In this document: piece after piece, positions 6,419-54,844 of the stretch
Layout of the letters: each line of letters begins with the position of its first letter
How positions within the stretch are numbered: position 1 is the first letter of the stretch
DNA from: Candidatus Latescibacterota bacterium
GTDB lineage: Bacteria; Latescibacterota; UBA2968; GCA-2709665
Assembly: GCA_965203805.1 (NCBI GenBank)
Contig: OZ241917.1
Location: forward strand, 2,816,001 to 2,880,000
Length of the DNA: 64,000 nucleotides
Direction: 5' to 3'
Notes under the pieces: generated by a model
Told to the model about the DNA's origin: nothing
What the model saw: only the letters and a program-made list of their open reading frames with translations
Database searches by the model: none
Program-made: the position numbers and the translations under genes

Positions 6419-6577
6419 TGTATCCTCTCCTGGTCGACGCTGAATCTGTGTTTTGCTCATCGAACGACGGTCCCTAGTCTGCCGGCCAGATCCACAGCCT
6501 GAATTTGGAGACCTGCAAGCTCTCGCAATCGAATCCCCGCGCTATAAAAACAACACATCAGGCATAAAAGTTCGCAC

Positions 6578-6946
6578 TTATAGATTCAGCGTATGACGGA
6601 GAGCCGCATCAACTTTGGCCATTGGAAGCGATCCAATGACGCGGTCAATTGCCGATTCCACAATTGTGGCAAGATTGTCAGCCATAACTACAGAATCTGT
6701 GAGTAGACCCGATTGTTGTCCTTCGGGGGTGGAAAGTAGAATGGCAACACGGCTCGAGTGATTGGCGCGAAACATCCTGCTGGTAATCATCGCCACGACC
6801 ACTTGGGATAAACCAGTCTGAAGATTATCAGATTGAACGATTAATCCCGGACGTGGCTTGGCTGTAAGCAAGTTAGAATCCGGAAAGAGCACTAAGACGA
6901 CGTCACCGCGACTATAGGTTGGATTTGGCTGCGTCATAGTTGTCAT
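6578..6946 (-). CDS. mazF: PemK/MazF family endoribonuclease toxin
   Basis: RGDVVLVLFP..KPRPGLIVQ..VVAMITS..GL..DS motifs. Confidence 0.88.
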   Translation of the reverse strand: MTTMTQPNPTYSRGDVVLVLFPDSNLLTAKPRPGLIVQSDNLQTGLSQVVVAMITSRMFRANHSSRVAILLSTPEGQQSGLLTDSVVMADNLATIVESAIDRVIGSLPMAKVDAALRHTLNL

Positions 6947-7172
6947 AAATACTCATTTCCGGGCTTTCCCAGTCTTCGGCAAAGGCCGTCAGGCGTTCGC
7001 GCAAATCTGCCGCCTGCGCCTTGTCAATACCGCGTCCTCGTAAATCGATAGAATGTGTTGGCAGAAATGTGACAATGACGGGCGTATCTTCATGTATATC
7101 GCTGGGTAATTCCGGAAGTTCAATCTTACCGCCGCGATACACTCCTTCAATCGTCGTGAGCATGGGGATCAC
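6912..7172 (-). CDS. Putative cognate antitoxin
   Basis: Small ORF overlapping the mazF start; N-terminal TIEGVYRGGKI, acidic C-terminus DWESPEMSIYD. Confidence 0.7.
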   Translation of the reverse strand: MIPMLTTIEGVYRGGKIELPELPSDIHEDTPVIVTFLPTHSIDLRGRGIDKAQAADLRERLTAFAEDWESPEMSIYDNYDAAKSNL

Positions 7173-7299: not shown

Positions 7300-7923
7300 T
7301 CAAAACGCTTCGTTTGAAACCAACTTCTTGTAGAAATGCGCCTCCACAGTCTTCAGGCGTGACTGATAAATCGATTTTTCGGTTGGTCCGGTTGAATCAA
7401 ACACCCGAACAAAAAAGCGGCATTTTTTCGACTTAGACCTCTCAAACAAGTTGGATGTTGCCGAAAGAAAAGACGCTTCCGAGATGTCCTGATTCATCAC
7501 AATATTCTGCAATTTCAGTGCCCGCCGTTCCTCTCTCCGGTGAGGTAGGCCAGTCTCCCTAACGACCAGTCCCTTAGGGGTGAGATTTATGTCGAAAATG
7601 TACTCAATGGATTCATCGTCCCGAACCCAGCAGGACGGAACTTCGGTCCCTTTACCTGCTGATATGGGGCCCTCATGCTCCCGCGCTATCCGCAGAGCAT
7701 CCCTTACAGAATCGGGATCTGGCGAAAATCCGTGCTCTTGCGCGGCTTCCCGAAATTCTTCAAGCCGTTGCCTTGCCTCTTGGTTTTGCACAACCATCAA
7801 TTGGTTTTGCACAACCATCAATATGAGAAGAAACATCGCAAGAATAAAAATAGATGTGATCAGATCCGTAAAAGACGGCCATACATTGAGTGAGGTATCC
7901 CTACGAGTTCGTCTCTTATTCAT
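7300..7923 (-). CDS. MotB/ZorB-like single-TM protein with a non-OmpA C-terminal domain
   Basis: WPSFTDLITSIFILAMFLL (W-x-S-x-x-D-L TM motif with the conserved Asp); directly follows a MotA-like gene. Confidence 0.7.
   Translation of the reverse strand: MNKRRTRRDTSLNVWPSFTDLITSIFILAMFLLILMVVQNQLMVVQNQEARQRLEEFREAAQEHGFSPDPDSVRDALRIAREHEGPISAGKGTEVPSCWVRDDESIEYIFDINLTPKGLVVRETGLPHRREERRALKLQNIVMNQDISEASFLSATSNLFERSKSKKCRFFVRVFDSTGPTEKSIYQSRLKTVEAHFYKKLVSNEAF
7780..7821. repeat. Perfect 21-bp tandem duplication (LMVVQNQ x2)
   Basis: ttggttttgcacaaccatcaa at 7780-7800 and 7801-7821. Confidence 0.9.
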
Positions 7924-7939
7924 TGCCAGATACCTACCA

Positions 7940-9769
7940 TCAGAAGAAACGCTTCAGTTTGTCCATAAAACTTAACTTTGGCGGACGGTCATCCCTGCGT
8001 TTAAGTGCATCAGCCATATCGCTAAGTGTGCCCTCCATAGCCTTTACAGACGCCACAATCTGTTTTTGCTCGCCGACGACTTTGGGAAGATTACTCAGCG
8101 TTTGAATGACACCTTTCAAATTTCCAACAAGTGTCTGATCCAGACGCTCAATGGCACTTTCCACGTCCGAAAGGCCCGTGCGTAGCGTGCCCACCTTTTC
8201 ATCCAAGTCGGTGTTGTCTCTATCGCTAAATTCCTGCTGAAGCTTCAGCAGAGCTTGTTCTGTGGCGTGAATGGCGTCCAGTTGCGCCTTGATGTTGTCA
8301 AAAACGGGTTTGTACGTTGGCTCATCGGGGTTGAGTTTTTGAATCAACTGATATGTTTCCTCCATTGTCAAGCCCAAGGTATTCATTCTTGCATAAAAGC
8401 CATCCATCATTTTATCGACTGCGGATTTCAACTCTTCCAACGGCTCACTGAGCCTGGTAAAATTAGAAATGTGTTTCACAAAATTCTCGCCCGACTTACG
8501 TATATCATCGGCTCCAGAGTTGAGCGCATCGCAAGCAGTGTTGAGGGTGTCCAAAAGCGGTTTGAGCGCGACTTTGAGATGGTCTGAATGATCTTTGAGT
8601 GTCTTTATGAGAAGGTCCGCTTGCTCTGCCATCAATGCCGAATGTCGATACGAGAAATCCTCAAGTGTGCTGCTCCATTTCTCACTCACTTGCTCGTTGG
8701 AGGCACTCGCTTTTTTTAGCGTATCACTGGCGTCGTTAAGCGTTTTCAAAAAAGGGACAAAGGATGTCGAGACCTTTTCAAAATGCGCTTCGAGTGCTCT
8801 TTCTATAGAGTCTGCCTGACTTGCCATCAATGCGGAATGTCGATGCGAGAAATCCTCAAGTGTGCTGCTCCATTTCTCACTCACTTGCTCGTTGGAGGCA
8901 CTCGCCTTGTTGAGCATGTCACTGGTGTTGTTGAGAGTTTGCAGAAAAGGCCCAAATGAAGCCGATACCTTCTCAAAATGTGCTTCAAGTGTGGTTTTGA
9001 GATAGTCTGTCTGATCCGTCATAAATTCCGAATGTCTATCTGCAAGACCTTTAAAAGCTTCTTGAACCGCCTCTTTCAGATCCACCTCAGGCAAAAACAA
9101 TCTGAATTTGGGGGCGATTTCTTCATTGCAATAGGTTTCTATCTCGGCAATCAATACAAGCCTTTTCTTGCTGAGAATTAGGAAACAGATAGTCAATACA
9201 ATCATGCAACCTAACCCAGCGATGCTGGTTATAAAGGCAAACTCCATCCCAGAGAACGACTTGACGATATTTTTTAGCATATCCGGCAGGCTTTGTGTTG
9301 CATTGTCTCCGGTATTTTGGATAATGCTTTCAATCGGTCGGATGACTTGGTAAAGCCCGATAAATGTCCCGAGAAGACCCAATACGATCAAACTCACGCT
9401 CGTTGTGCGAATCGCTTCGTCATTTCCGCAAAGATCTTCCTCTTCTCTCTGTACCATTTCATCAACGACTGGTGGTTTATTTTGCCGAAACCCCGCCCAG
9501 AGCAACTTCAGCCATTGTTGTGTTTTCGGATTCGAAGTAGAATCCGAGGGTGCATTTGCTGCTCTGCTGGCAATAAATCCTTGATGATTTTTTTCCCAAC
9601 TTTCCAAGTCTGCAAGTGCATTTCTCGATCTGGTTATCTTGCGCCACATTTTTGCTAAAAACCAAAGGCCCAAGCAAAAAAATATGCCCATAACGAGCAA
9701 CCAAATTACCAAAAAATTCGATGGATTCGACCCAAAAAATAAATCTGACATATTGGTAAATTTCCTCAT
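7940..9769 (-). CDS. MotA/TolQ/ExbB (ZorA-like) 3-TM protein with a long helical tail
   Basis: TM motifs LGLLGTFIGL and GMEFAFITSIAGL; ~400-aa helical/coiled-coil C-terminus. Confidence 0.82.
   Translation of the reverse strand: MRKFTNMSDLFFGSNPSNFLVIWLLVMGIFFCLGLWFLAKMWRKITRSRNALADLESWEKNHQGFIASRAANAPSDSTSNPKTQQWLKLLWAGFRQNKPPVVDEMVQREEEDLCGNDEAIRTTSVSLIVLGLLGTFIGLYQVIRPIESIIQNTGDNATQSLPDMLKNIVKSFSGMEFAFITSIAGLGCMIVLTICFLILSKKRLVLIAEIETYCNEEIAPKFRLFLPEVDLKEAVQEAFKGLADRHSEFMTDQTDYLKTTLEAHFEKVSASFGPFLQTLNNTSDMLNKASASNEQVSEKWSSTLEDFSHRHSALMASQADSIERALEAHFEKVSTSFVPFLKTLNDASDTLKKASASNEQVSEKWSSTLEDFSYRHSALMAEQADLLIKTLKDHSDHLKVALKPLLDTLNTACDALNSGADDIRKSGENFVKHISNFTRLSEPLEELKSAVDKMMDGFYARMNTLGLTMEETYQLIQKLNPDEPTYKPVFDNIKAQLDAIHATEQALLKLQQEFSDRDNTDLDEKVGTLRTGLSDVESAIERLDQTLVGNLKGVIQTLSNLPKVVGEQKQIVASVKAMEGTLSDMADALKRRDDRPPKLSFMDKLKRFF
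8520..9050. repeat. 195-bp (65-aa) intragenic tandem repeat, ~2.5-3 units
   Basis: gagaaatcctcaagtgtgctgctccatttctcactcacttgctcgttggaggcactcgc at 8652 and 8847; LEAHFEKVS..KASASNEQVSEKWSSTLEDFS repeated; outer bounds approximate. Confidence 0.85.
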
Positions 9770-10644
9770 CCAGCAATGATCACTTTTGCTTTGAGATCTA
9801 TCTCATCGGTTTGTGAATTCTTAAGCCCATGCGCCAAGCACCTTACAATTCGGTCCCGGGGTTGTGTCCCGCTTGTATCCTGACTGGCAATTTGAAATCG
9901 GCGCCTGTCAAAAGAATCCCCTGGACGCGCTCCAATTATCTCTACTTCATCCCCTCCCAAATCCATCATCAGATCAAAAACACGCTGCGCGTCCTCCTGT
10001 CGATTCTGTGTTACTCGACTGTCGATTTCGGGTAAGAAGTATCGAATCATCTGTGCGGGACGGGTACGGCGTAGAAGGCTTTCTATTGAAGACGCATTGA
10101 AAACTTCCTCACCTATAAGAGCACCTTTGAGCCAAAGAACCGGATCATCTGAATCATCTTGCATTTCGCGCAACGTCAACAGATCCTGTATTTGTTTTAA
10201 TGGCTTCTCAACCTCCCGATCAACATATACAGCGAAAGATGCACGGTCATCCTGCGACATCGCGCTCTTTATTTCCTCTAAAGCCGACCGAAACTGCCTC
10301 AAATACGTTACACGGTCTTTCAATTCGCGCCAATTTTCTTCATCCAAATCATCTGAAAAGCTACCTACACTTTCTCTTATTCTTCTCTTCAACAATTTTA
10401 TCCATTCAATATCTTCTTTATTCTGACCATTTTCCAAATCTTTGATGTTTTCTACTTCTGTACGGAGATTTGAAACGTGGGTCGCATAAACCTGTACCCG
10501 GTCCGACACTATAGCCTTCACGTCTTCACTTGCTTCTGATCGGGATTTTAAAACCTGCTTTCTTAACCATATAACAGACAAGAGTGCTATTAGAGAAATA
10601 ATGAATGAAATGACATTCAACAATGAATCAAATTCCTTAAACAT
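9766..10644 (-). CDS. Membrane-anchored GrpE-like protein
   Basis: N-terminal TM, coiled coil, C-terminal PGDSFDRRRFQ..IVRCLAHGL..KAKVII resembling the GrpE head; GGAGGT RBS before ATG 10644. Confidence 0.65.
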   Translation of the reverse strand: MFKEFDSLLNVISFIISLIALLSVIWLRKQVLKSRSEASEDVKAIVSDRVQVYATHVSNLRTEVENIKDLENGQNKEDIEWIKLLKRRIRESVGSFSDDLDEENWRELKDRVTYLRQFRSALEEIKSAMSQDDRASFAVYVDREVEKPLKQIQDLLTLREMQDDSDDPVLWLKGALIGEEVFNASSIESLLRRTRPAQMIRYFLPEIDSRVTQNRQEDAQRVFDLMMDLGGDEVEIIGARPGDSFDRRRFQIASQDTSGTQPRDRIVRCLAHGLKNSQTDEIDLKAKVIIAG

Positions 10645-10664
10645 CAAGCTACCTCCAAGAAGCA

Positions 10665-13600
10665 TTATGTGTAGGAAAAGTTCATACACCTTCGATGTGC
10701 TTCCCATACGTATTCAAAATCACTGCCATCTTTTTCATTGCCAACCCGATAGTTATACAAAAGGTCCGCTTTCCCCGCTACATCACATTTCAGTTCCAGG
10801 CAGTAAGTCCAGAATTGTGCGTTTTGAAATACATCATCGTCTTTTGGCACAGTTAGATTGGCAACGACCCTATTTTCAGCCTGGGTTACTCTTGTGTTTA
10901 AGTCCCACCCAAAAAACTCAACAAGCGCGATTCGGCTACTTGCCCTTTCTATTTCTATGATGAGGCCTGGGTTTTCCGGAGTGATGGTCGTATCTGGCTC
11001 CAACGGCGTCCAGCGATCAAAAACGAGTACAAAATGGGTAAATGCACGCATGCAGATGGGATAATTTAATTTTCGTATCCCTTTTGGAGGCGAATAATAG
11101 AGATCGCTCAAACTCCTACCATACTCAACAGCACCCAAAGCCACGCTTTTTTTCAGTTTTTCTGGTTCGAAAATGATCTCTTTCGCCTGTACTCTTTCTT
11201 TCGCAACCGTTTTTACGAGCGGGAGACGAGAGGTGTTTCCTTCCAAGATCAGATAATCTAACTGAGTATCGGCGATCTGATTCTTGTTGAACAGATAGTG
11301 CTGCATCTGATTGAGCTTATCAAAGCCTTTTTTCAGCTCCTCGCGGACAGAATTATAGATGTCGTTAATAGCTAAAGGTGCCATATCTGGAAGTAAGTTG
11401 TCATTCAAAAAACGCAGCGTGCCTTCTATACTCAGAGTGGCATTCTCAGGACTTTTACTCTTGAGAGAAACGCGTGGCCAATTATCGGGGATATTGGAGG
11501 ATTCGATCAGATCTAAAATGCCGTTCTCTCCACCATGAAGATGTTCAGCATAATCTTCGGGTTCCAGAGCCTCTCTAAGAAAAGACGTTATTCTATTGTT
11601 CTCCTTTATTGTTTCTGCTAATCCATAGAGTTGGGAGAAATTCTCCTCTTCGATTTTTTCCAGTGGTCTCAGTGCCTTATCCAATGTATCGGGAAAAGGG
11701 AATTGGGTTCTGTAAACCTCAGGGACCATTTGAAAATACAGATATTGCGCGATTTTGAAAGACAGCAAGTCGCCACCCAGCGAAACATCTCCGTCAGAGG
11801 CGAGAATTTCAATGTCGGGTCGTCCATATTCTTGAGGGGTTAATCGTACAATTGAGATGTCCGTGGTCCCTCCTCCACAATCGAAGACGCCATAAACAAT
11901 ATCTCGACCAAGGTCCTGCTTGATAGCGATATCCAGTGCATAAGCAAGGGCGATGGCCTCCGGTTCACTAATCTCAAGAATAGGTTTGAGATTCATTCCC
12001 TGTGTCGCCCACGCAATGGCTTTTCTCATTGACTCCTTTTGGCGATTAAAAACTGCGGGATAAGTAAAAACGGCTTCTGAGGGCACATAACCCGTATTTT
12101 CTTGGAAACTCTCCAATAAGAAACGGATGTAAAGCCCTACCTTTTCAATCGCACCAACTTCAATATATCTATTGCCCTGGGTATAAATTCTTCCATTTAA
12201 GCTGAGGCTCCCTGTACCCAAATCATTATAAATAATCTGTTCGTGGGGCGTTCTCAAGGTGCGCTTAAAACCCCAAGAAATTGATGAGATATGTTCAGAA
12301 TGAAACCGCAGGTCTTTAAGTGTATGACCAAATTTGACAAGGGCTTCTTTTTCCTTCAAAACAGTCCGCCTTACGTCAGCCCCCGGCTCTTGTAAAACTT
12401 CCAAAAGATCATCGGGGTTTTTAATCGCCAAAAACTGAAACACAGTGGGTATTTCCGAGCCCATTTCCGAGACATCTTCGCCAAGGTCTATTTCCAGTAG
12501 TTCCTCTTTGTCTTGGGCGTCCTGATCTATATATGCGATACACGAGTTCGTGGTACCGAAATCTACTGCAATAGGAGAATCCAGAAGCTGAGGAGGTCGG
12601 ATTTGAACGGGAAGAGAGATGGATTGATGGAACGTTTCGCCTTCGCCAACGGTAGCTCCGTGAATGACCAGAGTTGCCTTATCAGTGGTGTTCTCCTCAA
12701 CTGTCGGAAGTGTGTCTTGATTGAGAATCAGGTCAATTGGAGAACTCGAATTATCTATAAGAATTGGCTCCTGATCTGTAATTTGAATTCTTGTATTGAG
12801 CCAAGGCTGATTTGATTCAACCCGAGTAATTCGAAGTGGTGGACCACTTAAGTGCTTTACCGTTACGGTAAAGCTCATCTTTTTGTTTCCTCCAGATACA
12901 AGTGCCTGCTCGTTGACAAATTGACGGCTGAACTTCCACTCAATCTTTGGCTTATTAACATAGCGCAACAACAACCTGAATGTTATCTCGCCCAAACTGT
13001 CAAAAGGGAAATTTAAAATAGCAGGGCAAGTCTCTTCAAAGTCCCGTCGCCGAGTGAGACTAAATCTAAATGGATGCTCAGGAGAAAGTTTATCGGGAAA
13101 TTCCTGGTCCGGCGGTAAGTCAAAATGACCTTTGCCTTCAGACAGGAAAGGCGCGGCCTGAAGCCTCAGCGGAGAATCGTGATGAACCGTAAGGGTGACC
13201 CGTCCGTCGTCAGGGTCTATTGCGCAGGGCTGATATTCGACTGTGTCGTGTTTAAACTCGTGCTCATCTGGTGAAACAAGCCAAATCTCCGGTGCTTTCT
13301 CGCATCGAACAAAAAAAACAACAGGTTTAATTGACGAAAGTGATGAAAGCAATTCTAATCGCCCGATATTGCGCTCATGTGCATTATGCGAACAACGGAG
13401 TTCTACACTTTCATCGGTATCAAGTCTATACGGTAGATCAATATCTCCGTGCCGTTGGGTGATTCCGAAGCCCTGAGCCTTTAATTCACGAATTTCTATG
13501 GGATTGACGCCTTCGTTTTTAACCTTTAGCGTGATGGGTATACCAGAAAAAATCGTCCAGGGAGCACCCCTAAGGTCTTCGTCCGGATCTGGAGTGACTG

Positions 13601-13715
13601 TTATTCTAACTAACTGATATGCACACCCCCCGCAGAAGATATCTTTGGGTGAAATTTGCCAGTGGCATCTGGGGCATACCGGTGTGTTGCCTATTGAGTT
13701 CATTTTGAAACGCAT
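10665..13715 (-). CDS. Hsp70-family (actin-fold) ATPase with N-terminal Zn ribbon and Ig-like domains
   Basis: CPRC..CGGC; VDFGTTNS, FTYPAVF, SEPEAIAL, FDCGGGTTDISI, LGGD, GNTSRLP, SVALGA. Confidence 0.88.
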   Translation of the reverse strand: MRFKMNSIGNTPVCPRCHWQISPKDIFCGGCAYQLVRITVTPDPDEDLRGAPWTIFSGIPITLKVKNEGVNPIEIRELKAQGFGITQRHGDIDLPYRLDTDESVELRCSHNAHERNIGRLELLSSLSSIKPVVFFVRCEKAPEIWLVSPDEHEFKHDTVEYQPCAIDPDDGRVTLTVHHDSPLRLQAAPFLSEGKGHFDLPPDQEFPDKLSPEHPFRFSLTRRRDFEETCPAILNFPFDSLGEITFRLLLRYVNKPKIEWKFSRQFVNEQALVSGGNKKMSFTVTVKHLSGPPLRITRVESNQPWLNTRIQITDQEPILIDNSSSPIDLILNQDTLPTVEENTTDKATLVIHGATVGEGETFHQSISLPVQIRPPQLLDSPIAVDFGTTNSCIAYIDQDAQDKEELLEIDLGEDVSEMGSEIPTVFQFLAIKNPDDLLEVLQEPGADVRRTVLKEKEALVKFGHTLKDLRFHSEHISSISWGFKRTLRTPHEQIIYNDLGTGSLSLNGRIYTQGNRYIEVGAIEKVGLYIRFLLESFQENTGYVPSEAVFTYPAVFNRQKESMRKAIAWATQGMNLKPILEISEPEAIALAYALDIAIKQDLGRDIVYGVFDCGGGTTDISIVRLTPQEYGRPDIEILASDGDVSLGGDLLSFKIAQYLYFQMVPEVYRTQFPFPDTLDKALRPLEKIEEENFSQLYGLAETIKENNRITSFLREALEPEDYAEHLHGGENGILDLIESSNIPDNWPRVSLKSKSPENATLSIEGTLRFLNDNLLPDMAPLAINDIYNSVREELKKGFDKLNQMQHYLFNKNQIADTQLDYLILEGNTSRLPLVKTVAKERVQAKEIIFEPEKLKKSVALGAVEYGRSLSDLYYSPPKGIRKLNYPICMRAFTHFVLVFDRWTPLEPDTTITPENPGLIIEIERASSRIALVEFFGWDLNTRVTQAENRVVANLTVPKDDDVFQNAQFWTYCLELKCDVAGKADLLYNYRVGNEKDGSDFEYVWEAHRRCMNFSYT

Positions 13716-13725
13716 CCCAAAAAAA

Positions 13726-16700
13726 TCACTTCATCACATAGATATCGTCTTTGCAGAACTTATCGCGATACGCCAATGGAGTAGCAAATGTATCGATTCC
13801 ATCCCTCATTTTTTCCAATTTTTCATTTAAGGCAGTTTCGTCCAAATTGAACTGCCTGAGCGTCTGATCGTAATCGCTCTGATATGACCTGTCCAGCAAA
13901 ATTCGAAAGGTATGATCTGCGGAGATATCCTCGTTCCCCACGCGAATCTGAGTACTTGGAAATACCTTGTTGAGCAGCCAGCTCTTTAATGCGAGCCGCT
14001 GAATAAAACACTCGTGGCGATTTTCTCTACGCCACTGCTCTTCCAATGTGCGGGTCGCAATATCTAGACGGTCTTTTGCGTCTGATTTGCTACCTATGAT
14101 TAACCGTGCGCGCTCGAGATTGTGACCGTATCTATCTAAATGCTCAATACCTCTTAGCTTAAACGGACGGCAGAACTCTCTCTGAATATTATCGTATTTG
14201 ATAATGCTCATAATTATCCCATTGATCAGGGAACTCTGTGCATTAATCAGTGATCGAACTTCCCCATCATTTTGGGGTGGCAGGATGTCGGCAAATTCCC
14301 AATAATCTTTGATCATGTGACGACGGTACACGTTGATAGGATCTGCTCCGGTATTTGCCCGGTAATCACGATCAAGATCAAAAATATTTCCAATAGATAA
14401 AATGGGAAATGCCATCCATTGGTTTACAAAAACAACGGCGTCATTTCTGTGTTCTGTTGCTTGATATGATTGTCCTTTGTGCGGAGCAACAAGATGGTTG
14501 ACTTGATTGACCCAGACATCGTCCTTAACGCCAATGCGATTATCGGAAATATCTGCCAGACCGGGCAATGCCAGACGTGTATCAGAAACACGAGGTTCAG
14601 CTCTCTGGCTTCGCTTGACAATTTCATCCCGCTCCTGGTCGGCGAAACGATTGCGTAACTCCTCAGTGGCGTGAATATCTGTTTTGAAATCCCCAAAAAG
14701 TTGAAATGTGTATTCATCAATAGTCCTGAGAACGGCATCCCAATTGCGAGGGGAATGACCTCGCCTGGCAGACCGGTTGAATATCTCTCTGGTGCCTGTG
14801 TTTATGGTGTCGATATCTTCACCCTGTGCCGTAGCAATATTGCCAAACAGGATTTTGGCTTCTTCAGAACGGAAATATTTCTCCAGCCCTCCTCGACATA
14901 GACGCGGCAAATCAGTTTCTGGCCATCTTCTTGCCTGTCGGAGATGGTCTTGAATTTCTTCAGGATAATTTAGATCAAGTGTGAGGTTCAGGTTTCTTTC
15001 TCCCGTTACGCGCTGAATATATGCCTGATGGATCTCCAAGAAACCTCTGGACATTTCCTGCAGGTTCTCGCGAAAACCTTGAACCTGTGCTTGCAGACCG
15101 CTCACTCTTACACTAACCTTACCATCATCTCCGGTAACCTCTGCACGACTCCCCAGCAAGCGGATGATTTGTCCCACCAAATCGACGAGAAATCGGGCAG
15201 CATCCTTGCGAAAACGCTTCCGCACCCAATCGGAGAGTTCCCGCTGAGTGGCGTCAACCTGATTTCGAAGGTCTCGATAGATCTTTTGGGCATCCTCGCG
15301 AAAAGCCCTGGCTTTTTCGTCTTCGTAGTGACGCAACGCTATCTTTTTTGTTCGCCAGGCCAGAGGGAGATCTCGCGCTTCTTTCAACCGCTGTTCAAAG
15401 AGACGAAAGTCTCCTGAAAACTCAATATTTATAGGGGATATTTGGGGGCCTTCCATTTGCTCGTTAGCCAGCCTATTCAAATCTCGAAGCACGGATGCCA
15501 ATGCCTCTTTGCTGTGTTCCAAGAAGCTTTCGACATAGTTGGGACCGCACTCTAAAGGATTGCAAAGCATCCCGATACAATAATCTTTTACTTTGTCTTC
15601 GAGTTCTGGAAGCAATCGATCTGCATTGTCGAGGATCTGTTTAATATCGTCCCCTTTAATAGTGCCTTCCTCTTTGAGCTTTTCAGATACCTTCTGTCGT
15701 ATTTCAAGTGTTAGGCCTTCAACTCTCGACCTGGCTTCTGCCACCTGTCGTTCAAGGATCGCAACATCCTGAGCCTCGGGTGCTTTATCGATGCTTTGCA
15801 ATAGATCGGTAAAAACCGGTTTCAGAGTCTCATTTATTGCATGATCCGCCAGCGTAAAGTCTGCACCGGGACGGTTTAAGGCACGGTTGATGAGTCTATC
15901 TGTGGTGAGCTCGATCTGTTCCAAATGGGGTCGTACATCGGCTGTAGAAAACCCAGGAGGAATTTTATTATCCGCCGCGATTATAAAATCCACCAGGTAC
16001 TGTGCGAATTTATTCGATGCAGCATTGGCAAGACGAGGTTGGTTGATCTCCATTTGAGAGAGACCAAATGAGGCATATCGGCATGGGAAGTACTGAACAT
16101 AGTTGTCGCTCTTATATCTCACCATTTGCTGCAAAAATTGCTCCATATTGGAGCGGGCACTGCGCTTGTCCATCGCGAAACGAGTCTGTTCGAAGTCGAG
16201 CAACAGAAACTCAGCGATCATCTGAAACACATCGGCAAAGTCTGCAATGCGGACCCCGGCAAGATTGCTATCATCAAGCAAATAGACAGTTGAGAATGGG
16301 GGTGCTGGAACGCTGTGTTCACTGCCATCCCACTCGAATTTGTGTCGAGTAAAATGGTCGTCGCCTGTACTCTGTGCATCAAAGTATGGCTGCATGTAGT
16401 GTTCGAGTTCTTTGAGGGCGGCAAAACCATTAGCCCGTGTAGTTTGGCGTGCTCCCCCCACAATCTCATCAAAGACAGAAGGTAGTACCAAATGGGCTGT
16501 GCAGACCGCATTTGGAAAAAGATATCGACACAAAAATCCCATGTCGATGAAAGAGCCTGAACCAGTTCCTCCTGCGACGGATGTGACGATTACGATTTCC
16601 AGATCGTTGGAATCGGCATCATAGTTGGGAAATCTCCGCACCATTTCTGTCCTTGCCTCTGCGCTTTGAACGCGGTTGACCTTTCTTTCTATTTCTTCTC

Positions 16701-17157
16701 GAAGTTTATCATAGTGATGAAAAAAGGCTAATCGGCCACAAGGTCGAATCTGCCCAGCTCCTTGTGTGATCGCTGTGGAGGGAAGGGAGTCAAGAGCTTC
16801 TGGAAACCACGACCAGATATGAGGATACATACCTTTGTTATTGCGATATCCTTCCAATTCTTGAGGCATAACTCTACCATCTACTTTTTCACGGGCAGAA
16901 AAGTCTATTCTCCGATCCAGAAGGTCTGTTTCATTCTCCATAATGTCAATATTTCGAATGTCGGTATCAAACCAGAGGTACTCCATCAGAGGCAAACCAA
17001 TCATCCTGTATTTTTCGTAAAACATTCGACGGAGACGCCGCAGAACTTCCTTACCCGTGCCTCCAAGACCAATCAGAACAGTTGGCCTGATGCTGATCCG
17101 ACCTTCTCCTCGCTGTGCTCCACCAAGGCGTTCTGCCGTAGCATTTGTTTCCATCAT
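13726..17157 (-). CDS. Tubulin/FtsZ-like GTPase (Tubulin_2/FtsZl1 type) with a large helical C-terminus
   Basis: VLIGLGGTG, GAGQIRPCGR, SVAGGTGSG signature, ANGFAALKEL. Confidence 0.9.
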   Translation of the reverse strand: MMETNATAERLGGAQRGEGRISIRPTVLIGLGGTGKEVLRRLRRMFYEKYRMIGLPLMEYLWFDTDIRNIDIMENETDLLDRRIDFSAREKVDGRVMPQELEGYRNNKGMYPHIWSWFPEALDSLPSTAITQGAGQIRPCGRLAFFHHYDKLREEIERKVNRVQSAEARTEMVRRFPNYDADSNDLEIVIVTSVAGGTGSGSFIDMGFLCRYLFPNAVCTAHLVLPSVFDEIVGGARQTTRANGFAALKELEHYMQPYFDAQSTGDDHFTRHKFEWDGSEHSVPAPPFSTVYLLDDSNLAGVRIADFADVFQMIAEFLLLDFEQTRFAMDKRSARSNMEQFLQQMVRYKSDNYVQYFPCRYASFGLSQMEINQPRLANAASNKFAQYLVDFIIAADNKIPPGFSTADVRPHLEQIELTTDRLINRALNRPGADFTLADHAINETLKPVFTDLLQSIDKAPEAQDVAILERQVAEARSRVEGLTLEIRQKVSEKLKEEGTIKGDDIKQILDNADRLLPELEDKVKDYCIGMLCNPLECGPNYVESFLEHSKEALASVLRDLNRLANEQMEGPQISPINIEFSGDFRLFEQRLKEARDLPLAWRTKKIALRHYEDEKARAFREDAQKIYRDLRNQVDATQRELSDWVRKRFRKDAARFLVDLVGQIIRLLGSRAEVTGDDGKVSVRVSGLQAQVQGFRENLQEMSRGFLEIHQAYIQRVTGERNLNLTLDLNYPEEIQDHLRQARRWPETDLPRLCRGGLEKYFRSEEAKILFGNIATAQGEDIDTINTGTREIFNRSARRGHSPRNWDAVLRTIDEYTFQLFGDFKTDIHATEELRNRFADQERDEIVKRSQRAEPRVSDTRLALPGLADISDNRIGVKDDVWVNQVNHLVAPHKGQSYQATEHRNDAVVFVNQWMAFPILSIGNIFDLDRDYRANTGADPINVYRRHMIKDYWEFADILPPQNDGEVRSLINAQSSLINGIIMSIIKYDNIQREFCRPFKLRGIEHLDRYGHNLERARLIIGSKSDAKDRLDIATRTLEEQWRRENRHECFIQRLALKSWLLNKVFPSTQIRVGNEDISADHTFRILLDRSYQSDYDQTLRQFNLDETALNEKLEKMRDGIDTFATPLAYRDKFCKDDIYVMK

Positions 17158-17185
17158 GGTTCTACTCCCAAGGCAATTGGTTATC

Positions 17186-18214
17186 TCAATTTTTCTGAGT
17201 CTGAATGCGTGTCATAAAAAACGTGATTACAAAGGCGACAACACCAACAAAGACACACGACCAGAACAAGGCACTTTCATAAGTGGTCTGCCAACCCAGC
17301 AGATAATCCAAATATCCACTGAGATAAAAGATGATCGTCAACGCACTCCCCACAACTGTAATCACAGCCGAACGCGCAAAAGCATGCGCGGGATGTCGCT
17401 CCCGATTTTTTATTTGGACCGTAAAAATCACATATGTGGAGAATAAGTAAATTCCGATAATGATGATCGCCAGCAAAGCCCACATTAGAGAACCAGAAAA
17501 AATAGACGGTCTGGATGCCGACATATAAGCAGGAGGCTCCATACCTGGAACAACCTTGTCCTCATAATCCGATTTGCCCAATAAGGGTCTGGCTTCATCT
17601 ATTGCCACAGCGTAATTGAGATTCTGGGCACGTCTGGCGGTGTCCTGTTTGGTAAATGTTACAATGCCTACTACCTCTCCTTGTTCATTGAACAACGGCC
17701 CTCCGCTATTACCCGGTGAGACGGGTGCCGTGGTCTGGACAACCTTGTATCCATCCTGATTTCGTATCTGCGAAATGATGCCATCGGTGACAGAAAACTC
17801 CTCGCCTAAGGGATTTCCGATCACGACCACAGGGTCGCCGGGTTTTACTCCTGCCACTGTCCCAAGACGCGCCTGGTGAAGGGTCTGTCCACCCAGATCG
17901 GCCTTCACAAGCGCGAGATCTTTGTGCTCATCTTTTGCCACAATTGCCACGATAGGCATCCATTCGGCTCCCTGTACGCGCACCCATCCTTCTCGAATAC
18001 CCTTGATCACATGCCAGTTGGTCAGAAAATAGCCTTTTGCACCATCAATAGATACTCCCGACCCCTGACTCTTTGCGCCATCTGTTTCAATTACCACGAA
18101 GGCGACAGCAGGACCTTCTTCCTCAGCAATCCGCGAAGCAGTGTTATTGCTCGTCCCCCCACAACCCCACAGGACCAATAAAAAACCTATACGCGCAAGA
18201 TGTGATGTCATCAC
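17186..18214 (-). CDS. Trypsin-like (S1C) serine protease, lipoprotein with C-terminal TMs
   Basis: Lipobox LWGC; triad TNWHV / DLAL / GNSGGP; no PDZ; three hydrophobic C-terminal segments. Confidence 0.88.
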   Translation of the reverse strand: MMTSHLARIGFLLVLWGCGGTSNNTASRIAEEEGPAVAFVVIETDGAKSQGSGVSIDGAKGYFLTNWHVIKGIREGWVRVQGAEWMPIVAIVAKDEHKDLALVKADLGGQTLHQARLGTVAGVKPGDPVVVIGNPLGEEFSVTDGIISQIRNQDGYKVVQTTAPVSPGNSGGPLFNEQGEVVGIVTFTKQDTARRAQNLNYAVAIDEARPLLGKSDYEDKVVPGMEPPAYMSASRPSIFSGSLMWALLAIIIIGIYLFSTYVIFTVQIKNRERHPAHAFARSAVITVVGSALTIIFYLSGYLDYLLGWQTTYESALFWSCVFVGVVAFVITFFMTRIQTQKN

Positions 18215-18226
18215 ATACTCTCCTAT

Positions 18227-19921
18227 TCAAAATCGTGCAGCCAAACGTTCAACCTTCATCGACATATCGCCCTTCTTTAATATCAGAGCTTTATAAGGCT
18301 CTAACAAAAGCTTGATATTTCTTGGCTGTTCTTCTACCTCCGACTCCAAGTCTTTCGACATATCATTACCCAAAGTATCTTCCACTATGACGTCCTCATC
18401 TGGACGGAAAGCGAACTGAAAAATAGCATCTCGCTTGATGTGTCCCAAACTGATTTCGTCGCCTGCGGCATTTGTTATTTTCAAATCAACCTGCTTGCTC
18501 GCGGGCCCCAATCGAAGCCGTTCCGTGTGTTCCTGAACTTGATTCAGGCTGTCTGTAACCCGATATTTCAACGGATAGTACATTATCCAAGCGATCATAG
18601 CAATCAAGATTATCAAGCCAACAAGGAGTGCGACCCAGGCGATCCAGGGACCTTTAAGGGGTGTGATTTGCAATTCGCCAGAAATCGTACCACCTATCGG
18701 CACGACAGTTGCAGGCTGTTGATGGAGGTACTGGATAATATCAGTAGGCGTATAGATGCGGTTCAACACACCCGGCTGGTCGGTGAAGTACCGCGCTTTG
18801 TAAGCCTCTGTCATGCGAAACGAATTAGGCGGAATTTCTATAGACACAGCGAAATAATAGTCCGCTGGCACAGGGCCAATACGGACGAGGCTCAAGTAGT
18901 CCCAGAAATTTCGATGGTCTGGATAAAAAGGGCCAAAGTGTACCAGGCAGGTATAGACAGAGGTATGTTGGGTCGCAGACATAAGTGTATCTACGAGTGC
19001 TGGGGGGCTTACCCGACCGTAGTGATACGATCTACGGCCTAACAAAATGCGATCCTGCACCTTGCGGGCGTATACCTGCGGAGGTTGGACTTTAAACTCC
19101 GATCCTGCAGGTTCAATGTTAATGTGGCTGAGTCGTGATTGTAGTGTAAAATTAAAACGCAGTCGGCTTTTTTCACTAATTTCCGCAACGATTGGTCTGA
19201 TCAACCCGGGAGCTAAAATAATGGTATCATCAATCGGCTTCATCACCATCGGCTCCATTCCCTCGTTCTGCAAAACTGTGACGAGATGCTCAAATTGGGA
19301 GCGGAATTGTGGCTGCGTAAGCAACAGATAAAGGACAAAACCTTTCATTCCCCGGTAGTAGAGCCGACGATCAGGACGGATCCGGATTTCGGAATTGGGG
19401 TTCATGCTTTGCAGTTCGCTATGTCCTTTATGTGGGACGGGATTAGACAGAAGCCCTTCAAACATCCGCTTAAGAGGGATAGCCCGCAAAACTTTGATCG
19501 TATCGCGGTTAAAACAAGCATAAAGTGCTCTGGCGTCGAGATCGCTGGCTGCCTGAACATTGTCCGTGAGCATCATCACAATCGGCGCCCTGTCATATCC
19601 CGTATTAAATGCCGCCTCAAGATTGGTATATCCACCCCAGGTCTTTGTCTTTTGGAAACTCTCGGCACCCTGCCAGGCTACTGTATCTGGCCGGCTTGAA
19701 ACAAAAAAAACTGTCTCTGAGGGAATGTCCTTCTGGTCGCACGCCTTTTTCAGGATATTGACCAGAATATTGAGTTCTTTACTGTTGTCGAAACCAGTCA
19801 TCGAACCAGAGCCGTCAATCTGTATGCTCACTCTTTGGGCATATACCGACGATGCTTGTGCGAACAATATGCCCAATATGATAATAAAATAGGCCACTGC
19901 CTTAGGCCTCTCTATCCCCAT
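18227..19921 (-). CDS. Signal-peptide vWA-domain single-pass membrane protein
   Basis: Signal peptide; MIDAS IDGSGSM, YTNL, LTDN; TM PWIAWVALLVGLIILIAMIAW. Confidence 0.72.
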   Translation of the reverse strand: MGIERPKAVAYFIIILGILFAQASSVYAQRVSIQIDGSGSMTGFDNSKELNILVNILKKACDQKDIPSETVFFVSSRPDTVAWQGAESFQKTKTWGGYTNLEAAFNTGYDRAPIVMMLTDNVQAASDLDARALYACFNRDTIKVLRAIPLKRMFEGLLSNPVPHKGHSELQSMNPNSEIRIRPDRRLYYRGMKGFVLYLLLTQPQFRSQFEHLVTVLQNEGMEPMVMKPIDDTIILAPGLIRPIVAEISEKSRLRFNFTLQSRLSHINIEPAGSEFKVQPPQVYARKVQDRILLGRRSYHYGRVSPPALVDTLMSATQHTSVYTCLVHFGPFYPDHRNFWDYLSLVRIGPVPADYYFAVSIEIPPNSFRMTEAYKARYFTDQPGVLNRIYTPTDIIQYLHQQPATVVPIGGTISGELQITPLKGPWIAWVALLVGLIILIAMIAWIMYYPLKYRVTDSLNQVQEHTERLRLGPASKQVDLKITNAAGDEISLGHIKRDAIFQFAFRPDEDVIVEDTLGNDMSKDLESEVEEQPRNIKLLLEPYKALILKKGDMSMKVERLAARF

Positions 19922-21149
19922 TGAGAGGATAACAGTACAGCATTGTGGAATTATCTTCTCTCATCAAGACATATACACTATGCCCAAAACCTGCTGGTGC
20001 GGTCACAGCAGTCAGACCAGTGTTGAACGACCAGAAGCGCGGACGAGAAATGCCATTGTTGCGGTCAAAATGGAATAGTGACACGAGGGGCAACCCATTA
20101 GGATCTTCATTATCTTGAAAACCTATGAGAACATTGCCAAAAGAGCTACACATGTCCGTCTGACTCATGAAGGCTGGATACGCTCTATCAACACTACTAT
20201 CCAGGGGATTCACTAAATTTACGCCTTCAGATGTGACCACAACGAACCAATTCTGATCGTCAATGTCTATGGAGTGAAGGGCTGTCGCACGGAGATCAGG
20301 TATGGTATCTGTAATGGGTTCGAGATTATCCTGAGTAAAAGAAATTATCCTGACATCACCATTCTCTTGTCTGGACGCTAAGCGAAGCAGGCCAGTGCAG
20401 TTTGATCCTACGCAATGGCTCTTGCCCCCTTCTTCAAATCCTTCATAAGGCTCCGAGACACCATCATCTGTCAACAAGGCCATGTTATACTCACCTACGA
20501 GCGCCACCATAAAATCTCCGCCTTGCAGTGGAACCAGCGTTTCAATATCAAATGGCGTGTCTATTTCTCGAGGTTTGTAAGCAGTTTCCTCTCCTTCTAC
20601 CCAAAAATTATTGATGGATGGTGTATCTCCTATTCTTATTCGACGATTTGCTTCGTCAAGTACGAGCAACCGATTTTTGAACAACCAAAATTTCTGTACA
20701 TTCTCGGCACATGGCCACCAATTCGTGCTCATAGCCATATAGTCGCTGCAGAGCGCAGACACCGGAAAAACATGGAGATTACCGTGAGTGTTCAGGACAT
20801 ATATCCAACACTGGTCAAAGCGAACTTCGGCGATTCCCTCGGTGATGTGTGAGAGAAAAAAAGGGGTGCTTTCGTGGAGAGGGTTGGGAAAAACGACCAT
20901 ATTTCCCGTAGCTTTCTCAACAACCAATGCAACGCCGAATATGTTCAAGAGCAAATCAGGTTTTCCTCTAAGCGGAACTATGTGTTCCTCGGGCGGGCGA
21001 CTTTCCGTGGGCGCTACGGGTGCTGCAACTAGAGTCGCTTTATCCGGGAGACTGCCACATTGAGAGCAGAAATTGGCGAGTGGCGGGTTGGTTTCTGCAC
21101 CACAGGCGTTACATTTCCACGTGTTTGTCGTCCAATTCCATTTGACCAT
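19902..21149 (-). CDS. Zn-ribbon protein with beta-rich (possibly propeller) C-terminus
   Basis: CNAC..CSQC N-terminus; 20-bp overlap with the next gene. Confidence 0.6.
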   Translation of the reverse strand: MVKWNWTTNTWKCNACGAETNPPLANFCSQCGSLPDKATLVAAPVAPTESRPPEEHIVPLRGKPDLLLNIFGVALVVEKATGNMVVFPNPLHESTPFFLSHITEGIAEVRFDQCWIYVLNTHGNLHVFPVSALCSDYMAMSTNWWPCAENVQKFWLFKNRLLVLDEANRRIRIGDTPSINNFWVEGEETAYKPREIDTPFDIETLVPLQGGDFMVALVGEYNMALLTDDGVSEPYEGFEEGGKSHCVGSNCTGLLRLASRQENGDVRIISFTQDNLEPITDTIPDLRATALHSIDIDDQNWFVVVTSEGVNLVNPLDSSVDRAYPAFMSQTDMCSSFGNVLIGFQDNEDPNGLPLVSLFHFDRNNGISRPRFWSFNTGLTAVTAPAGFGHSVYVLMREDNSTMLYCYPLNGDREA

Positions 21150-50469: not shown

Positions 50470-52020
50470 ATGACCAGACGCAGACTGCCCATCGGCATTC
50501 AGACCTTCCGCAAAATTCGGGAGGACGACTGCTACTACGTCGATAAGACCGCCTACATCCGGAGGTTGCTCGACGAGGGTACTCATTACTTCCTATCGCG
50601 TCCTCGGCGCTTTGGCAAGAGCCTGTTTTTAGACACGATCAAGGAGGTGTTCGAGGGCAACGAGCCGCTGTTTGCCGGGCTGGCCATCCACGACCAGTGG
50701 GATTGGTCGGTGCGCCATCCGGTGCTGCGGCTCGACTTCAGCAGCGGCGCCTACCAGGGGCCGGACGACTTGCAAAAGGAAGTGGCGGCGCAATTGAACA
50801 CCCTGGAGGACGAGGCGGAGATCGTCTCGCGCGACGACGACACCGCTTCGGCTCGCTTCCGCCGCTTGATGAAGGTGCTGCACGAGCGAAGTGGTCAGCG
50901 CGTTGCCGTGCTGATTGACGAATACGACAAGCCTATTTTGGATGCGCTGGATACGCCGGAGGTCGCCCGTGCCAACCGCGACTTTCTACGCGGCCTGTAT
51001 TCGACCGTGAAGTTTGCCGACGCCCACGTCCGGCTCACGTTCATCACAGGGGTGAGCAAGTTCTCCAAGGTCAGCTTGTTTTCCGGCCTCAACAATCTCA
51101 AGGACATCACCCTGGACCCGCGCTATTCGGCTCTGTGCGGCTACACCGAGGCAGACCTGGATACGGTGTTCTCGCCGGAGTTGCCCGGCCTGGACCGGGA
51201 GCGGATCCGCGACTGGTACAACGGCTACCGGTGGCGGGGCGACGAGAAGGTGTACAACCCCTTCGACATCCTGCTGCTGTTCGACAGCCGCGAGTTCAAA
51301 GCCTATTGGTTCGAGACCGGGACGCCGACGTTCCTGATCGAAATGCTGCTCGAGCGCCGCGTCAGTTCCTTAGAACTCGGCGCGATGGAGGGCAGCGACG
51401 AACTCCTCTCGACCTTTGACGTCGATGACGTCGCCACGGAGGCCCTGCTGTTCCAGACAGGCTACCTGACGATCACCGACGAGGAGGACCTGGGCGGCGA
51501 GCCCGTCTATCGCCTGGACTATCCCAACCGCGAGGTGCGCCAGAGCCTGAACCGCAGTCTGCTGCGCTACCTGGTGCGGGATGCGACGCGGCAGCGGGCC
51601 AATAGCACACGGTTGTACCGGCTGTTGGAAGCCAACGACTTCGAGGGACTCAAGACACTTTTCCACGCTTTCTTCGCCAGCATCCCCTACGAGTGGTACA
51701 CCAACAACGACGTTGCCAGGTACGAGGGCTACTACGCCAGCGTTTTCTATTCCTATTTCGCGGCGCTGGGTCTCAATATCACCGTAGAAGACAGCAGCAG
51801 TCACGGGCGCGTGGATATGGCTGTACACTTCAACGACAACGTCTATCTGTTCGAGTTCAAAGTGGTAGAGTTGGCGTCTGATGGGGCTGCGATGGCGCAA
51901 TTGCGGGAGAAGGGATACGCGGACAAATACCGCGATTTGGGGCAGCCGATTCACCTGATCGGGGTCGAGTTCAGCAAGGATACCCGCAATATCACGGCCT
52001 TCGAGGCGGCCCGTGCGTGA
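50470..52020 (+). CDS. AAA-ATPase-like + PD-(D/E)XK nuclease (PDDEXK_9) protein, copy 1
   Basis: LPIGIQTF, YYVDKT, RPRRFGKSL, LIDEYDKP, GRVDM..FEFK..Q..KGY. Confidence 0.9.
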   Translation: MTRRRLPIGIQTFRKIREDDCYYVDKTAYIRRLLDEGTHYFLSRPRRFGKSLFLDTIKEVFEGNEPLFAGLAIHDQWDWSVRHPVLRLDFSSGAYQGPDDLQKEVAAQLNTLEDEAEIVSRDDDTASARFRRLMKVLHERSGQRVAVLIDEYDKPILDALDTPEVARANRDFLRGLYSTVKFADAHVRLTFITGVSKFSKVSLFSGLNNLKDITLDPRYSALCGYTEADLDTVFSPELPGLDRERIRDWYNGYRWRGDEKVYNPFDILLLFDSREFKAYWFETGTPTFLIEMLLERRVSSLELGAMEGSDELLSTFDVDDVATEALLFQTGYLTITDEEDLGGEPVYRLDYPNREVRQSLNRSLLRYLVRDATRQRANSTRLYRLLEANDFEGLKTLFHAFFASIPYEWYTNNDVARYEGYYASVFYSYFAALGLNITVEDSSSHGRVDMAVHFNDNVYLFEFKVVELASDGAAMAQLREKGYADKYRDLGQPIHLIGVEFSKDTRNITAFEAARA

Positions 52021-54752: not shown

Positions 54753-54844
54753 GCGAAGACCGCTGGGGAGTTTAAAACAGCTTCTCAAGGAAACAAAAGC
54801 GTGAAGCAGGAATTACATCACCCAATGCCTGGAGGAAATTGCCG

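Follow-up and report, generated by a model that had tools for sequence, protein, structure and literature searches.

What kind of machine would bring together, in one operon, a tubulin-like GTPase, an Hsp70-type protein and a pair of membrane proteins resembling the motor of Zorya defense systems? This question is raised by an eight-gene cluster in the genome of a Candidatus Latescibacterota bacterium (assembly GCA_965203805.1), which was analyzed within a stretch of 64,000 nucleotides (nt) of contig OZ241917.1 (positions 2,816,001 to 2,880,000 of the forward strand), hereafter called the window. The cluster covers positions 7300-21149 of the window and consists of eight co-oriented open reading frames (ORFs) on the minus strand, g1 to g8, which run from 21149 towards 7300. 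A previous interpretation of this DNA, here referred to as the sequence-only reading, had described eight co-oriented and tightly packed genes, and this description was borne out: neighboring genes either lie 10-28 nt apart or share 4-43 nt. The overlap of 43 nt between g5 and g6 would be reduced to 1 nt if g6 starts at Met15 (position 10665), as in the homolog from genome G029. The genes and their predicted products, with lengths in amino acids (aa), are as follows.

g1, 19902..21149, minus strand, 415 aa: cytoplasmic Zn-ribbon protein, the remainder possibly a beta-propeller

g2, 18227..19921, minus strand, 564 aa: exported protein resembling von Willebrand factor A domains (vWA-like)

g3, 17186..18214, minus strand, 342 aa: lipoprotein HtrA-like serine protease without PDZ domain, fused to a C-terminal domain with three transmembrane (TM) helices

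g4, 13726..17157, minus strand, 1143 aa: GTPase of the Tubulin_2/FtsZl1 family with a C-terminal extension

g5, 10665..13715, minus strand, 1016 aa: Zn-ribbon, about three Ig-like beta-sandwich domains, Hsp70-type ATPase and C-terminal beta domain

g6, 9766..10707 (likely start 10665), minus strand, 313 aa: TM helix, long helices and GrpE-like C-terminal beta domain

g7, 7940..9769, minus strand, 609 aa: ZorA-like channel subunit of the MotA/ExbB type with three TM helices and a long tail

g8, 7300..7923, minus strand, 207 aa: chimeric ZorB-like protein

21-nt tandem duplication, 7780..7821, minus strand: two copies, repeating seven residues, where the two halves of g8 meet (read from the sequence)

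We compared the window to 14 other fetched loci from Latescibacterota, and the eight genes were present in the identical order in all 15 loci. Since the same order is kept in all 14 other loci, the arrangement of g1 to g8 is above chance. Co-occurrence of the genes in other genomes, which had been named beforehand as a check on the sequence-only reading, was thus found at two levels of divergence, and the theme is repeated in distant metagenome loci. The operons fall into two clades, of which the near clade encodes proteins that are 49-84% identical to those of the window and the far clade proteins that are 24-46% identical, with g6 of the far clade alignable only by profile. Every catalytic or ligand motif that was tested is invariant among the loci.

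The operon is an accessory, horizontally transferred and conserved cassette. With a g5 profile it was recovered from 16 of the 168 genomes of the phylum, representing 4 of 49 genera, and with a tubulin query it was found in none of 14 genomes from the same genus as the window, whereas a genus in a sister family has it in 5 of its 16 genomes. A profile search of contigs with the g5 alignment was swamped by DnaK and contained at least three true loci among the matches listed. The g1-g8 block forms an island of low GC content (46% versus 60%), with values of 43-48% as compared to about 61% on both sides, and the operon has a lower GC content than both flanks in 14 of the 15 loci. A tyrosine recombinase gene adjoins the operon in two genomes (G029 and G089). 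In a third (G146; locus L115, about 5285-6470 in the oriented locus), the tubulin gene carries an insertion of 1.19 kb, on either side of which the gene is 99.6-99.7% identical to the intact copy in G141; the insertion is an insertion sequence (IS) element with a DDE-type transposase gene on the opposite strand, as judged by eye. The flanking genes differ between the clades and mostly have housekeeping functions, such as glycogen debranching enzyme, TonB-dependent receptor and Ig-domain proteins. The first two of these are the neighbors in loci of the type found in genus g25, within which the position of the operon is conserved.

The central protein of the cassette, g4, matches the Pfam family Tubulin_2 (PF13809) with an E-value of 1.7e-66 (225 bits versus a cut-off of 27). 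The predicted GTPase region spans residues 27 to 390 approximately, and the C-terminal extension that follows it is mostly helical and comprises about 750 aa. Both the GGTGSG loop (residues 196-201) and the N-terminal Gly-rich motif are invariant among the homologs, and g4 is the sole Tubulin_2 gene in the genome. When searched alone, the C-terminal extension retrieved 46 representatives at E<=1e-3, of which 25 at <=1e-10, mostly in proteins of about 1150-1200 aa and at the same position. A scan of viral contigs with the tubulin alignment retrieved none and thus gave no support for an origin from phages.

The last two genes are predicted to encode a ZorAB-like stator of the 5:2 type with a proton-relay Asp. 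The g7 protein matches the ZorA models of PADLOC with E-values from 1.9e-13 to 1e-8, the NCBIfam model ZorA_1 with 6e-11 (41 bits versus a cut-off of 190) and the Pfam family MotA_ExbB with 22.7 bits (cut-off 22.9). Its motifs in TM2 and TM3 are invariant among the homologs, and its helical tail is built of repeats of about 50 residues, the number of which differs between genomes, so that the proteins vary from 450 to 633 aa; extra tail repeats are present in the window copy and in two relatives. The ZorB/MotB-like part of g8 is confined to residues 1-46, which contain a TM segment with Asp20, and the match to the PADLOC model ZorB1 (2.7e-5) covers residues 3-60 only. The scores of g7 and g8 on ZorA- and ZorB-type models in NCBIfam fall far short of the cut-offs, and the resemblance of g7 to ZorA is one of architecture.

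In 13 of the 15 loci, the ZorB-like homologs continue into a C-terminal domain, which was identified as OmpA by Pfam in the three that were scanned (3e-14 to 8e-11). In the window, residues 50 to 207 approximately of g8 instead share 52-91% identity with the C-terminal portion of proteins in 37 other clusters, and full-length members of this donor family are 251-318 aa long with a different N-terminal TM helix. These similarities suggest that the OmpA domain was exchanged for the periplasmic domain of another membrane-protein family. The chimera is probably a retained domain swap rather than debris, since a relative with 92% identity (P0237) has the same chimera without the second copy of the 21-nt duplication. 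A second copy without OmpA domain was found in genome G034 (locus L010, oriented 16049-16215), where the ZorB-like gene ends after about 55 residues and is followed by an unrelated gene for a protein of 272 aa. The sequence-only reading had named g8 a MotB/ZorB-like protein, which holds for residues 1-46 with Asp20, but not for the remainder, which is the domain of the other family rather than OmpA.

A full-length member of the g8 donor family is encoded in genome G089, 0.54 Mb away from the operon (locus L202, C1:3908000-3924000). Its gene overlaps the end of a gene for a helical-repeat protein of 469 aa, and the surroundings encode an FGE-sulfatase-domain protein, a WD40/propeller protein of 806 aa and a protein with AAA and PDDEXK_9 domains. 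This family member may itself act as B subunit in a second stator-like pair, in surroundings that resemble those of conflict systems.

For g5, the match to the Pfam family HSP70 (3.2e-14) covers only part of the ATPase. Its phosphate-1 (residues 385-391), phosphate-2 (residues 612-619) and EPEA motifs are invariant among the homologs. An AlphaFold2 (AF2) model with a predicted local distance difference test (pLDDT) score of 80.5 shows the Zn-ribbon, about three beta-sandwich domains, the Hsp70-type ATPase and the C-terminal beta domain. Foldseek searches with this model retrieved DnaK, BiP and Hsc70 with E-values between 7e-16 and 7e-13 (DnaK 6.7e-16). About 660-690 columns were aligned to full-length Hsp70 proteins, which is enough to span the substrate-binding beta domain, and TMt was 0.62-0.68 against targets that contain only the nucleotide-binding domain. 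As judged from the model, g5 is a protein with the Hsp70 nucleotide-binding fold and ATP-binding motifs.

No family match was obtained for g6, and a sequence-profile search of the PDB found no GrpE. In the AF2 model, the C-terminal beta domain has pLDDT values of 86-91, as compared to 65 for the whole model. The top ten Foldseek matches to the model are all GrpE (E-values from 8e-4 to 3e-2, probability 0.85-1.00), with 1dkg as the best (8.3e-4); the next fold has a probability of at most 0.16, and the TM-scores are low. When the g6 family profile was aligned to the GrpE of the host with hhalign, the last 64 residues aligned to the C-terminal domain of GrpE (probability 66%, E-value 5.6e-5). 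The predicted structure thus points to a GrpE-like protein, with long helices and a small C-terminal beta domain as in GrpE, and the pair resembles the partners of the DnaK-GrpE cycle. It differs from them in the N-terminal Zn-ribbon and three Ig-like domains of g5 and in the membrane anchor of g6, which is present in the clade of the window. Also, no J-domain family was identified in the operon in the Pfam scan, while the canonical grpE gene is located elsewhere in the genome, adjoining a DnaJ-like gene.

The most divergent gene of the set is g1, with 26-29% identity between the two clades. Its zinc-ribbon matches in Pfam are weak, but C13, C28 and C31 as well as several Trp residues are invariant in 14 of 14 sequences. 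Clusters of NHL/6-blade propellers are among its neighbors in the protein atlas at 0.80-0.82, which is a lead only, and a sequence-profile search of the PDB gave nothing useful. No match to g2 was found in Pfam, NCBIfam or PDB sequence profiles; its language-model neighbors in the protein atlas include VWA_2 clusters at 0.82-0.86, again a lead only. The residues of the metal ion-dependent adhesion site (MIDAS), namely D36, S38 and S40 (DxSxS), T99 and D120, are invariant in 15 of 15 sequences. With an N-terminal signal or anchor, a single TM helix around residues 424-447 and about 115 aa beyond it as a cytoplasmic tail, g2 is predicted to be an exported vWA-like protein with an intact metal site.

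The protease g3 matches Trypsin_2 with an E-value of 1.5e-29. Its catalytic triad (H68, D99, S170) and the lipobox Cys18 are invariant among the homologs, and the protein has three C-terminal TM helices. It resembles the HtrA/DegP proteases in its trypsin fold with a His-Asp-Ser triad and differs from them in that the three TM helices take the place of the PDZ domain, to which no match was found in the Pfam scan; its scores on DegP-family models in NCBIfam (65-117 bits) are far below the cut-offs. By sequence, g3 is thus an HtrA-like protease with intact catalytic residues on a three-TM anchor. Small membrane proteins encoded just upstream of the tubulin gene in two distant loci (L128 and L139) match the TM part of g3 weakly (E-values of 4e-4 and 6e-4).

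The assignments given by the sequence-only reading to the tubulin-like GTPase, the Hsp70, the GrpE-like protein and the lipoprotein trypsin protease therefore agree with the Pfam matches of g4 and g3, with the motifs and Foldseek matches of g5, with the top ten Foldseek matches of g6 and with the invariant lipobox Cys of g3. Its statement that the operon lacks nuclease, helicase and small-GTPase genes was also confirmed, in that no nuclease, helicase or P-loop GTPase family was identified in the Pfam, PADLOC and NCBIfam scans of g1 to g8.

We also looked for relatives outside the phylum. Full-length relatives of g4 with 24-31% identity were found in records from Poribacteria, Sericytochromatia and Fibrobacteres. 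A set of 81 distant loci was assembled, 80 of which came from a metagenome scan with distant tubulins, with the locus from Poribacteria as the remaining one, and partner genes were sought with hidden Markov models (HMMs) of eight families. An Hsp70-like gene is located beside the tubulin gene in 23 of the 81 loci, and a vWA-like gene homologous to g2 upstream of it also in 23. A ZorA-like gene is found downstream of the tubulin gene in 11 loci, a ZorB-like gene in 8 and a GrpE-like gene in 6. Comparisons of proteins from the distant loci with the g1, g3 and g6 families by hhalign were mostly weak, and for g1 restricted to the Zn-ribbon (87-92% over 27 columns).

The combination of vWA-like, Hsp70-like and ZorA-like genes was observed in locus L127 and in the group of loci L148, L151 and L152. 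In L127, the order is a gene for a 399-aa protein, the vWA-like gene, a gene for a small protein with four TM helices, the tubulin gene, the Hsp70-like gene, genes for three proteins, and finally MotA_ExbB and MotB/OmpA genes; the MotA_ExbB protein scores above the Pfam cut-off (36.5 bits) and has a helical tail. The locus in a metagenome-assembled genome from Poribacteria (L090, 2985-15143) contains two Tubulin_2 genes, the second of which is apparently split into ORFs of 287 and 561 aa. These are followed by a gene for an Ig-like/Hsp70 protein of 1164 aa and later by a gene for a coiled-coil protein of 447 aa with a weakly GrpE-like C-terminus. The GrpE-like matches in L090 and L127 stay at E-values of 0.006-0.045. 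In a metagenome contig of Latescibacteria type (L118, 16753-22329), the region after the Hsp70-like gene contains three interspersed ORFs on the opposite strand, each of exactly 324 aa, and a ZorA- or ZorB-like gene was not detected in this locus.

In the tubulin tree, the Latescibacterota clade is nested in a large clade with vWA, Hsp70, GrpE-like and stator partners, and L127 and L126 form its sister pair. A separate clade has only a stator pair directly downstream of the tubulin gene. As the minimal pairings elsewhere are tubulin with stator or tubulin with Hsp70, the tubulin-like protein appears to be the hub for both modules.

Zorya systems consist of a ZorAB stator, the long tail of which signals to cytoplasmic effectors, in combination with ZorC and ZorD, with ZorE or with ZorF and ZorG. 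The operon resembles these systems in that a predicted MotA/ExbB-type subunit with a long helical tail of variable length is followed by a MotB-type subunit with an Asp residue, in the relatives with OmpA. The logic would also match by analogy, with envelope sensing passed on to cytoplasmic partners, but here these partners would be the tubulin-like GTPase and the Hsp70 pair rather than nucleases or helicases. Assignment to a known Zorya type was rejected, as no type-specific effector model matches: the PADLOC models for ZorC, ZorD, ZorE, ZorF and ZorG gave no match in g1 to g8 at E<=0.1. No PADLOC system is matched by the operon, and the only models in PADLOC that match are of the ZorA/ZorB type or for protease domains.

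Two computational studies have described parts of the combination. Operons for FtsZl1 with vWA, OmpA-family, GTPase and kinase genes, for which a role in membrane remodeling was proposed, are reported in the main text of one study (Makarova and Koonin, 2010; PMC2875224). Shared with these operons are the long Tubulin_2 protein, many membrane partners, a patchy distribution and, if g2 is a vWA protein as its conserved MIDAS residues suggest, a vWA partner; an OmpA-family protein is shared as well, here only through the ZorB-like proteins of the relatives. The frequent P-loop GTPase and Ser/Thr kinase partners described in that text are both missing from g1 to g8 in the Pfam scan. The main text contains no mention of MotA/ExbB/TolQ, Hsp70/DnaK or a protease, some of which may be included unnamed among the families A1-A2 and B1-B9 of the additional file.

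The second study presents DO-GTPase/GAP1-N2 systems as NTP-dependent conflict systems with three non-overlapping themes, including tubulin with vWA and HSP70 with GrpE, mainly in Firmicutes and Actinobacteria (Kaur, Burroughs, Iyer and Aravind, 2020; PMC7159879). These systems have the following features in common with the operon: tubulin proteins with C-terminal helical extensions, TM-anchored extracellular vWA proteins, HSP70 with GrpE, Zn-ribbons, beta-sandwich repeat modules, trypsin-like peptidases and action near the membrane. The difference is that the tubulin and HSP70/GrpE themes are joined here in one operon with a ZorAB-like stator, and in Latescibacterota. Matches to DO-GTPase1 and DO-GTPase2 (PF19975 and PF19993) were absent from the whole genome of 5.87 Mb; the positive control for PF19993 matched in C. 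glutamicum, while the control for PF19975 matched nowhere. No family named GAP1 was found at E<=0.1 in the scan of g1 to g8 against Pfam, which should include GAP1 models. Membership in the DO-GTPase/GAP1 systems was rejected because of the genome-wide absence of DO-GTPases.

ZorAB is listed as a phage-defense motor of the 5:2 type in a third article, which also proposes that membrane-tethered vWA proteins next to TolQ-like motors are force transducers, perhaps for gliding (PMC12204202). Like those proteins, g2 is predicted to be a periplasmic vWA protein on a TM anchor that is encoded together with a 5:2-type motor. The proteins presented there lack tubulin or Hsp70 partners and are equipped with either a TolR-like pore helix or an SHLS helix like that of TolA/TonB. 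In g2, a C-terminal TM helix leads into a cytoplasmic tail, and the operon encodes a MotB-like subunit separately.

The literature search retrieved no description of a tubulin-like protein joined with ZorAB or MotAB and no experimental function for Tubulin_2/FtsZl1 proteins, although these form a large branch of the tubulin superfamily; a study of the FtsZ/tubulin family sets the Tubulin_2 group aside as divergent outliers (PMC9871819, 2023). Similar gene neighborhoods may be included in the supplements of PMC2875224 and PMC7159879. According to the sequence-only reading, no described system joins all of the parts. This stands in so far as neither PADLOC nor the literature provided a match, but the combination of FtsZl1 with vWA (PMC2875224) and the tubulin/vWA and HSP70/GrpE themes (PMC7159879) were already known. 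The operon is best regarded as a variant of the FtsZl1 and tubulin/HSP70 systems known from computational work, from which it is distinguished by the coupling to a ZorAB-like stator.

With regard to function, the sequence-only reading had proposed either envelope-sensing defense or membrane remodeling, with a dedicated chaperone that would control a tubulin-like polymer. It is supported in part, namely as to the conserved cassette and the lack of a named system in PADLOC. The reading that we tentatively favor, with slightly less than even confidence, is that the operon encodes an envelope-spanning machine with a role in conflict or defense. In such a machine, an ion-driven stator with its anchor in the envelope would together with the vWA and protease ectodomains report a disturbance of the envelope, for which phage attack would be the leading candidate. 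The tail of the ZorA-like protein and the cytoplasmic tail of g2 could relay the signal to the tubulin-like protein, and the output would be its GTP-dependent assembly at the membrane. The Hsp70/GrpE-like pair might then load, remodel or disassemble this assembly. In the lineage of the window, the wall-binding OmpA domain of the stator would have been exchanged for another periplasmic domain.

Several results weigh against this reading. Searches of the PDB with sequence profiles yielded no FtsZ or tubulin chain for g4 at E<=1, only helical designs, and no ZorA, MotA or ExbB chain for g7 at E<=1, so that these two assignments rest on the Pfam, PADLOC and NCBIfam models, on which the scores of g7 are near or below the cut-offs. 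The g8 protein of the window has no OmpA domain, as determined both from Pfam and from the comparison of homologs. A killing effector such as a nuclease, a pore or an NADase was not recognized in g1 to g8 in the scans against Pfam, PADLOC and NCBIfam. The partner HMMs were iterated on the same 81 distant loci and may have drifted, and no partner family was found in 40 of these loci, many of which are on short contigs. Finally, no known defense genes or defense island flank the operon at the loci examined. Since the flanks consist mostly of housekeeping genes, there is no defense-island signal; a defense-island context is unsupported, and a defensive role is plausible but unproven.

In a broader formulation, a proton-driven 5:2 stator would be coupled directly through its long cytoplasmic tail to a tubulin-like GTPase, the assembly of which near the membrane is set by a private Hsp70/GrpE pair together with exported vWA and protease sensors. 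The operon would then represent an unrecognized class of envelope-to-cytoskeleton signaling or immunity, present in several bacterial phyla as tubulin with stator, tubulin with Hsp70 or all combined, and Zorya would be one branch of a larger family of sensors based on stators. We consider this generalization to be rather unlikely as it stands. Irrespective of it, the operon and its distant relatives connect the Tubulin_2 branch with exported vWA and protease modules as well as with two engines that are well understood, the MotAB/ZorAB-type stator and the Hsp70/GrpE cycle. A first functional study could make use of several sites that can be mutated, namely Asp of the stator, Ser of the protease, the GGTGSG loop of the tubulin-like protein, the phosphate motifs of the Hsp70 and the MIDAS. 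In a defensive system, sensing as in Zorya would be combined with an output through the cytoskeleton instead of nucleases; otherwise, bacteria would possess a new type of cytoskeletal machine that is powered by a stator.

The alternative that survives best is that the same machine has a non-immune task in the envelope or the membrane, which we regard as a real, if somewhat doubtful, possibility. The stator would then power remodeling, as in vesicle formation, envelope repair or vWA-mediated adhesion or gliding, with the tubulin-like filament as a track or scaffold and the Hsp70/GrpE-like pair as its assembly factor. Membrane remodeling was proposed for the FtsZl1/vWA/OmpA operons in the main text of Makarova and Koonin (2010; PMC2875224), and the force transducers proposed in PMC12204202, perhaps for gliding, combine vWA with a TolQ-like motor. 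The housekeeping nature of the flanks, the conserved position within genus g25 and the lack of a recognized killing effector in g1 to g8 point in the same direction. Set against these are the patchy distribution (16 of 168 genomes, none of 14 in the genus of the window), the foreign composition in nearly every locus and the copies that have been disrupted by an IS element or truncated. Patchiness, foreign composition and decay fit a dispensable and often exchanged accessory system better than core cell biology, while being compatible with a niche-specific function.

It is improbable that the copy in the window is a decaying relic in which the loss of OmpA by recombination has inactivated the stator. 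The short ZorB-like segment of g8 (residues 1-46) and the 21-nt duplication at the junction could be taken as signs of decay, which does occur in the family, as seen from the truncated ZorB-like gene in G034 and the IS element in the tubulin gene of G146. However, the other seven genes of the window are intact with all motifs conserved, and the reading frame of g8 is open through a domain that is 52-91% identical in 37 other clusters. We rate this explanation low, as P0237, a relative with 92% identity that lacks the duplication, has kept the chimeric form of g8. It is strongly disfavored and highly improbable that three independent modules (the Zorya-like pair, the FtsZl1/vWA operon and the chaperone pair) lie side by side by chance and do not function jointly: the sub-modules do occur apart elsewhere (tubulin with stator only, or tubulin with vWA and Hsp70 only), but all 15 loci have the same order although the proteins of the two clades are only 26-46% identical, adjacent genes overlap or are just a few bases apart, metagenome lineages that are unrelated (L127 and the group of L148) show the full theme again, and the genome has one Tubulin_2 gene and a canonical GrpE encoded elsewhere beside a DnaJ-like gene.

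The upstream neighbor of the operon in the window is a zinc alcohol dehydrogenase gene. Downstream, a putative toxin-antitoxin region (6578-7172) is followed by host-like genes with a high GC content. This region comprises an ORF of 86 aa (6912-7172, minus strand) with no family match, which overlaps a toxin gene of the PemK/MazF family (6578-6946, 2.1e-14). Located directly 3' of the operon in a zone of intermediate GC content, the two ORFs look like a type II toxin-antitoxin pair of the MazEF type. No tRNA genes were found within the 64-kb window, and a scan for promoters and terminators gave results at or below the expectation from shuffled sequences. Further away, two paralogs on the plus strand (50470-52020 and 54839-56392) each encode a predicted AAA-ATPase domain and a PD-(D/E)XK nuclease domain (PDDEXK_9), and a DDE transposase gene (62463-63830, plus strand; DDE_Tnp_1_4, 1.7e-152) is located in a stretch of lower GC content at the end of the window.

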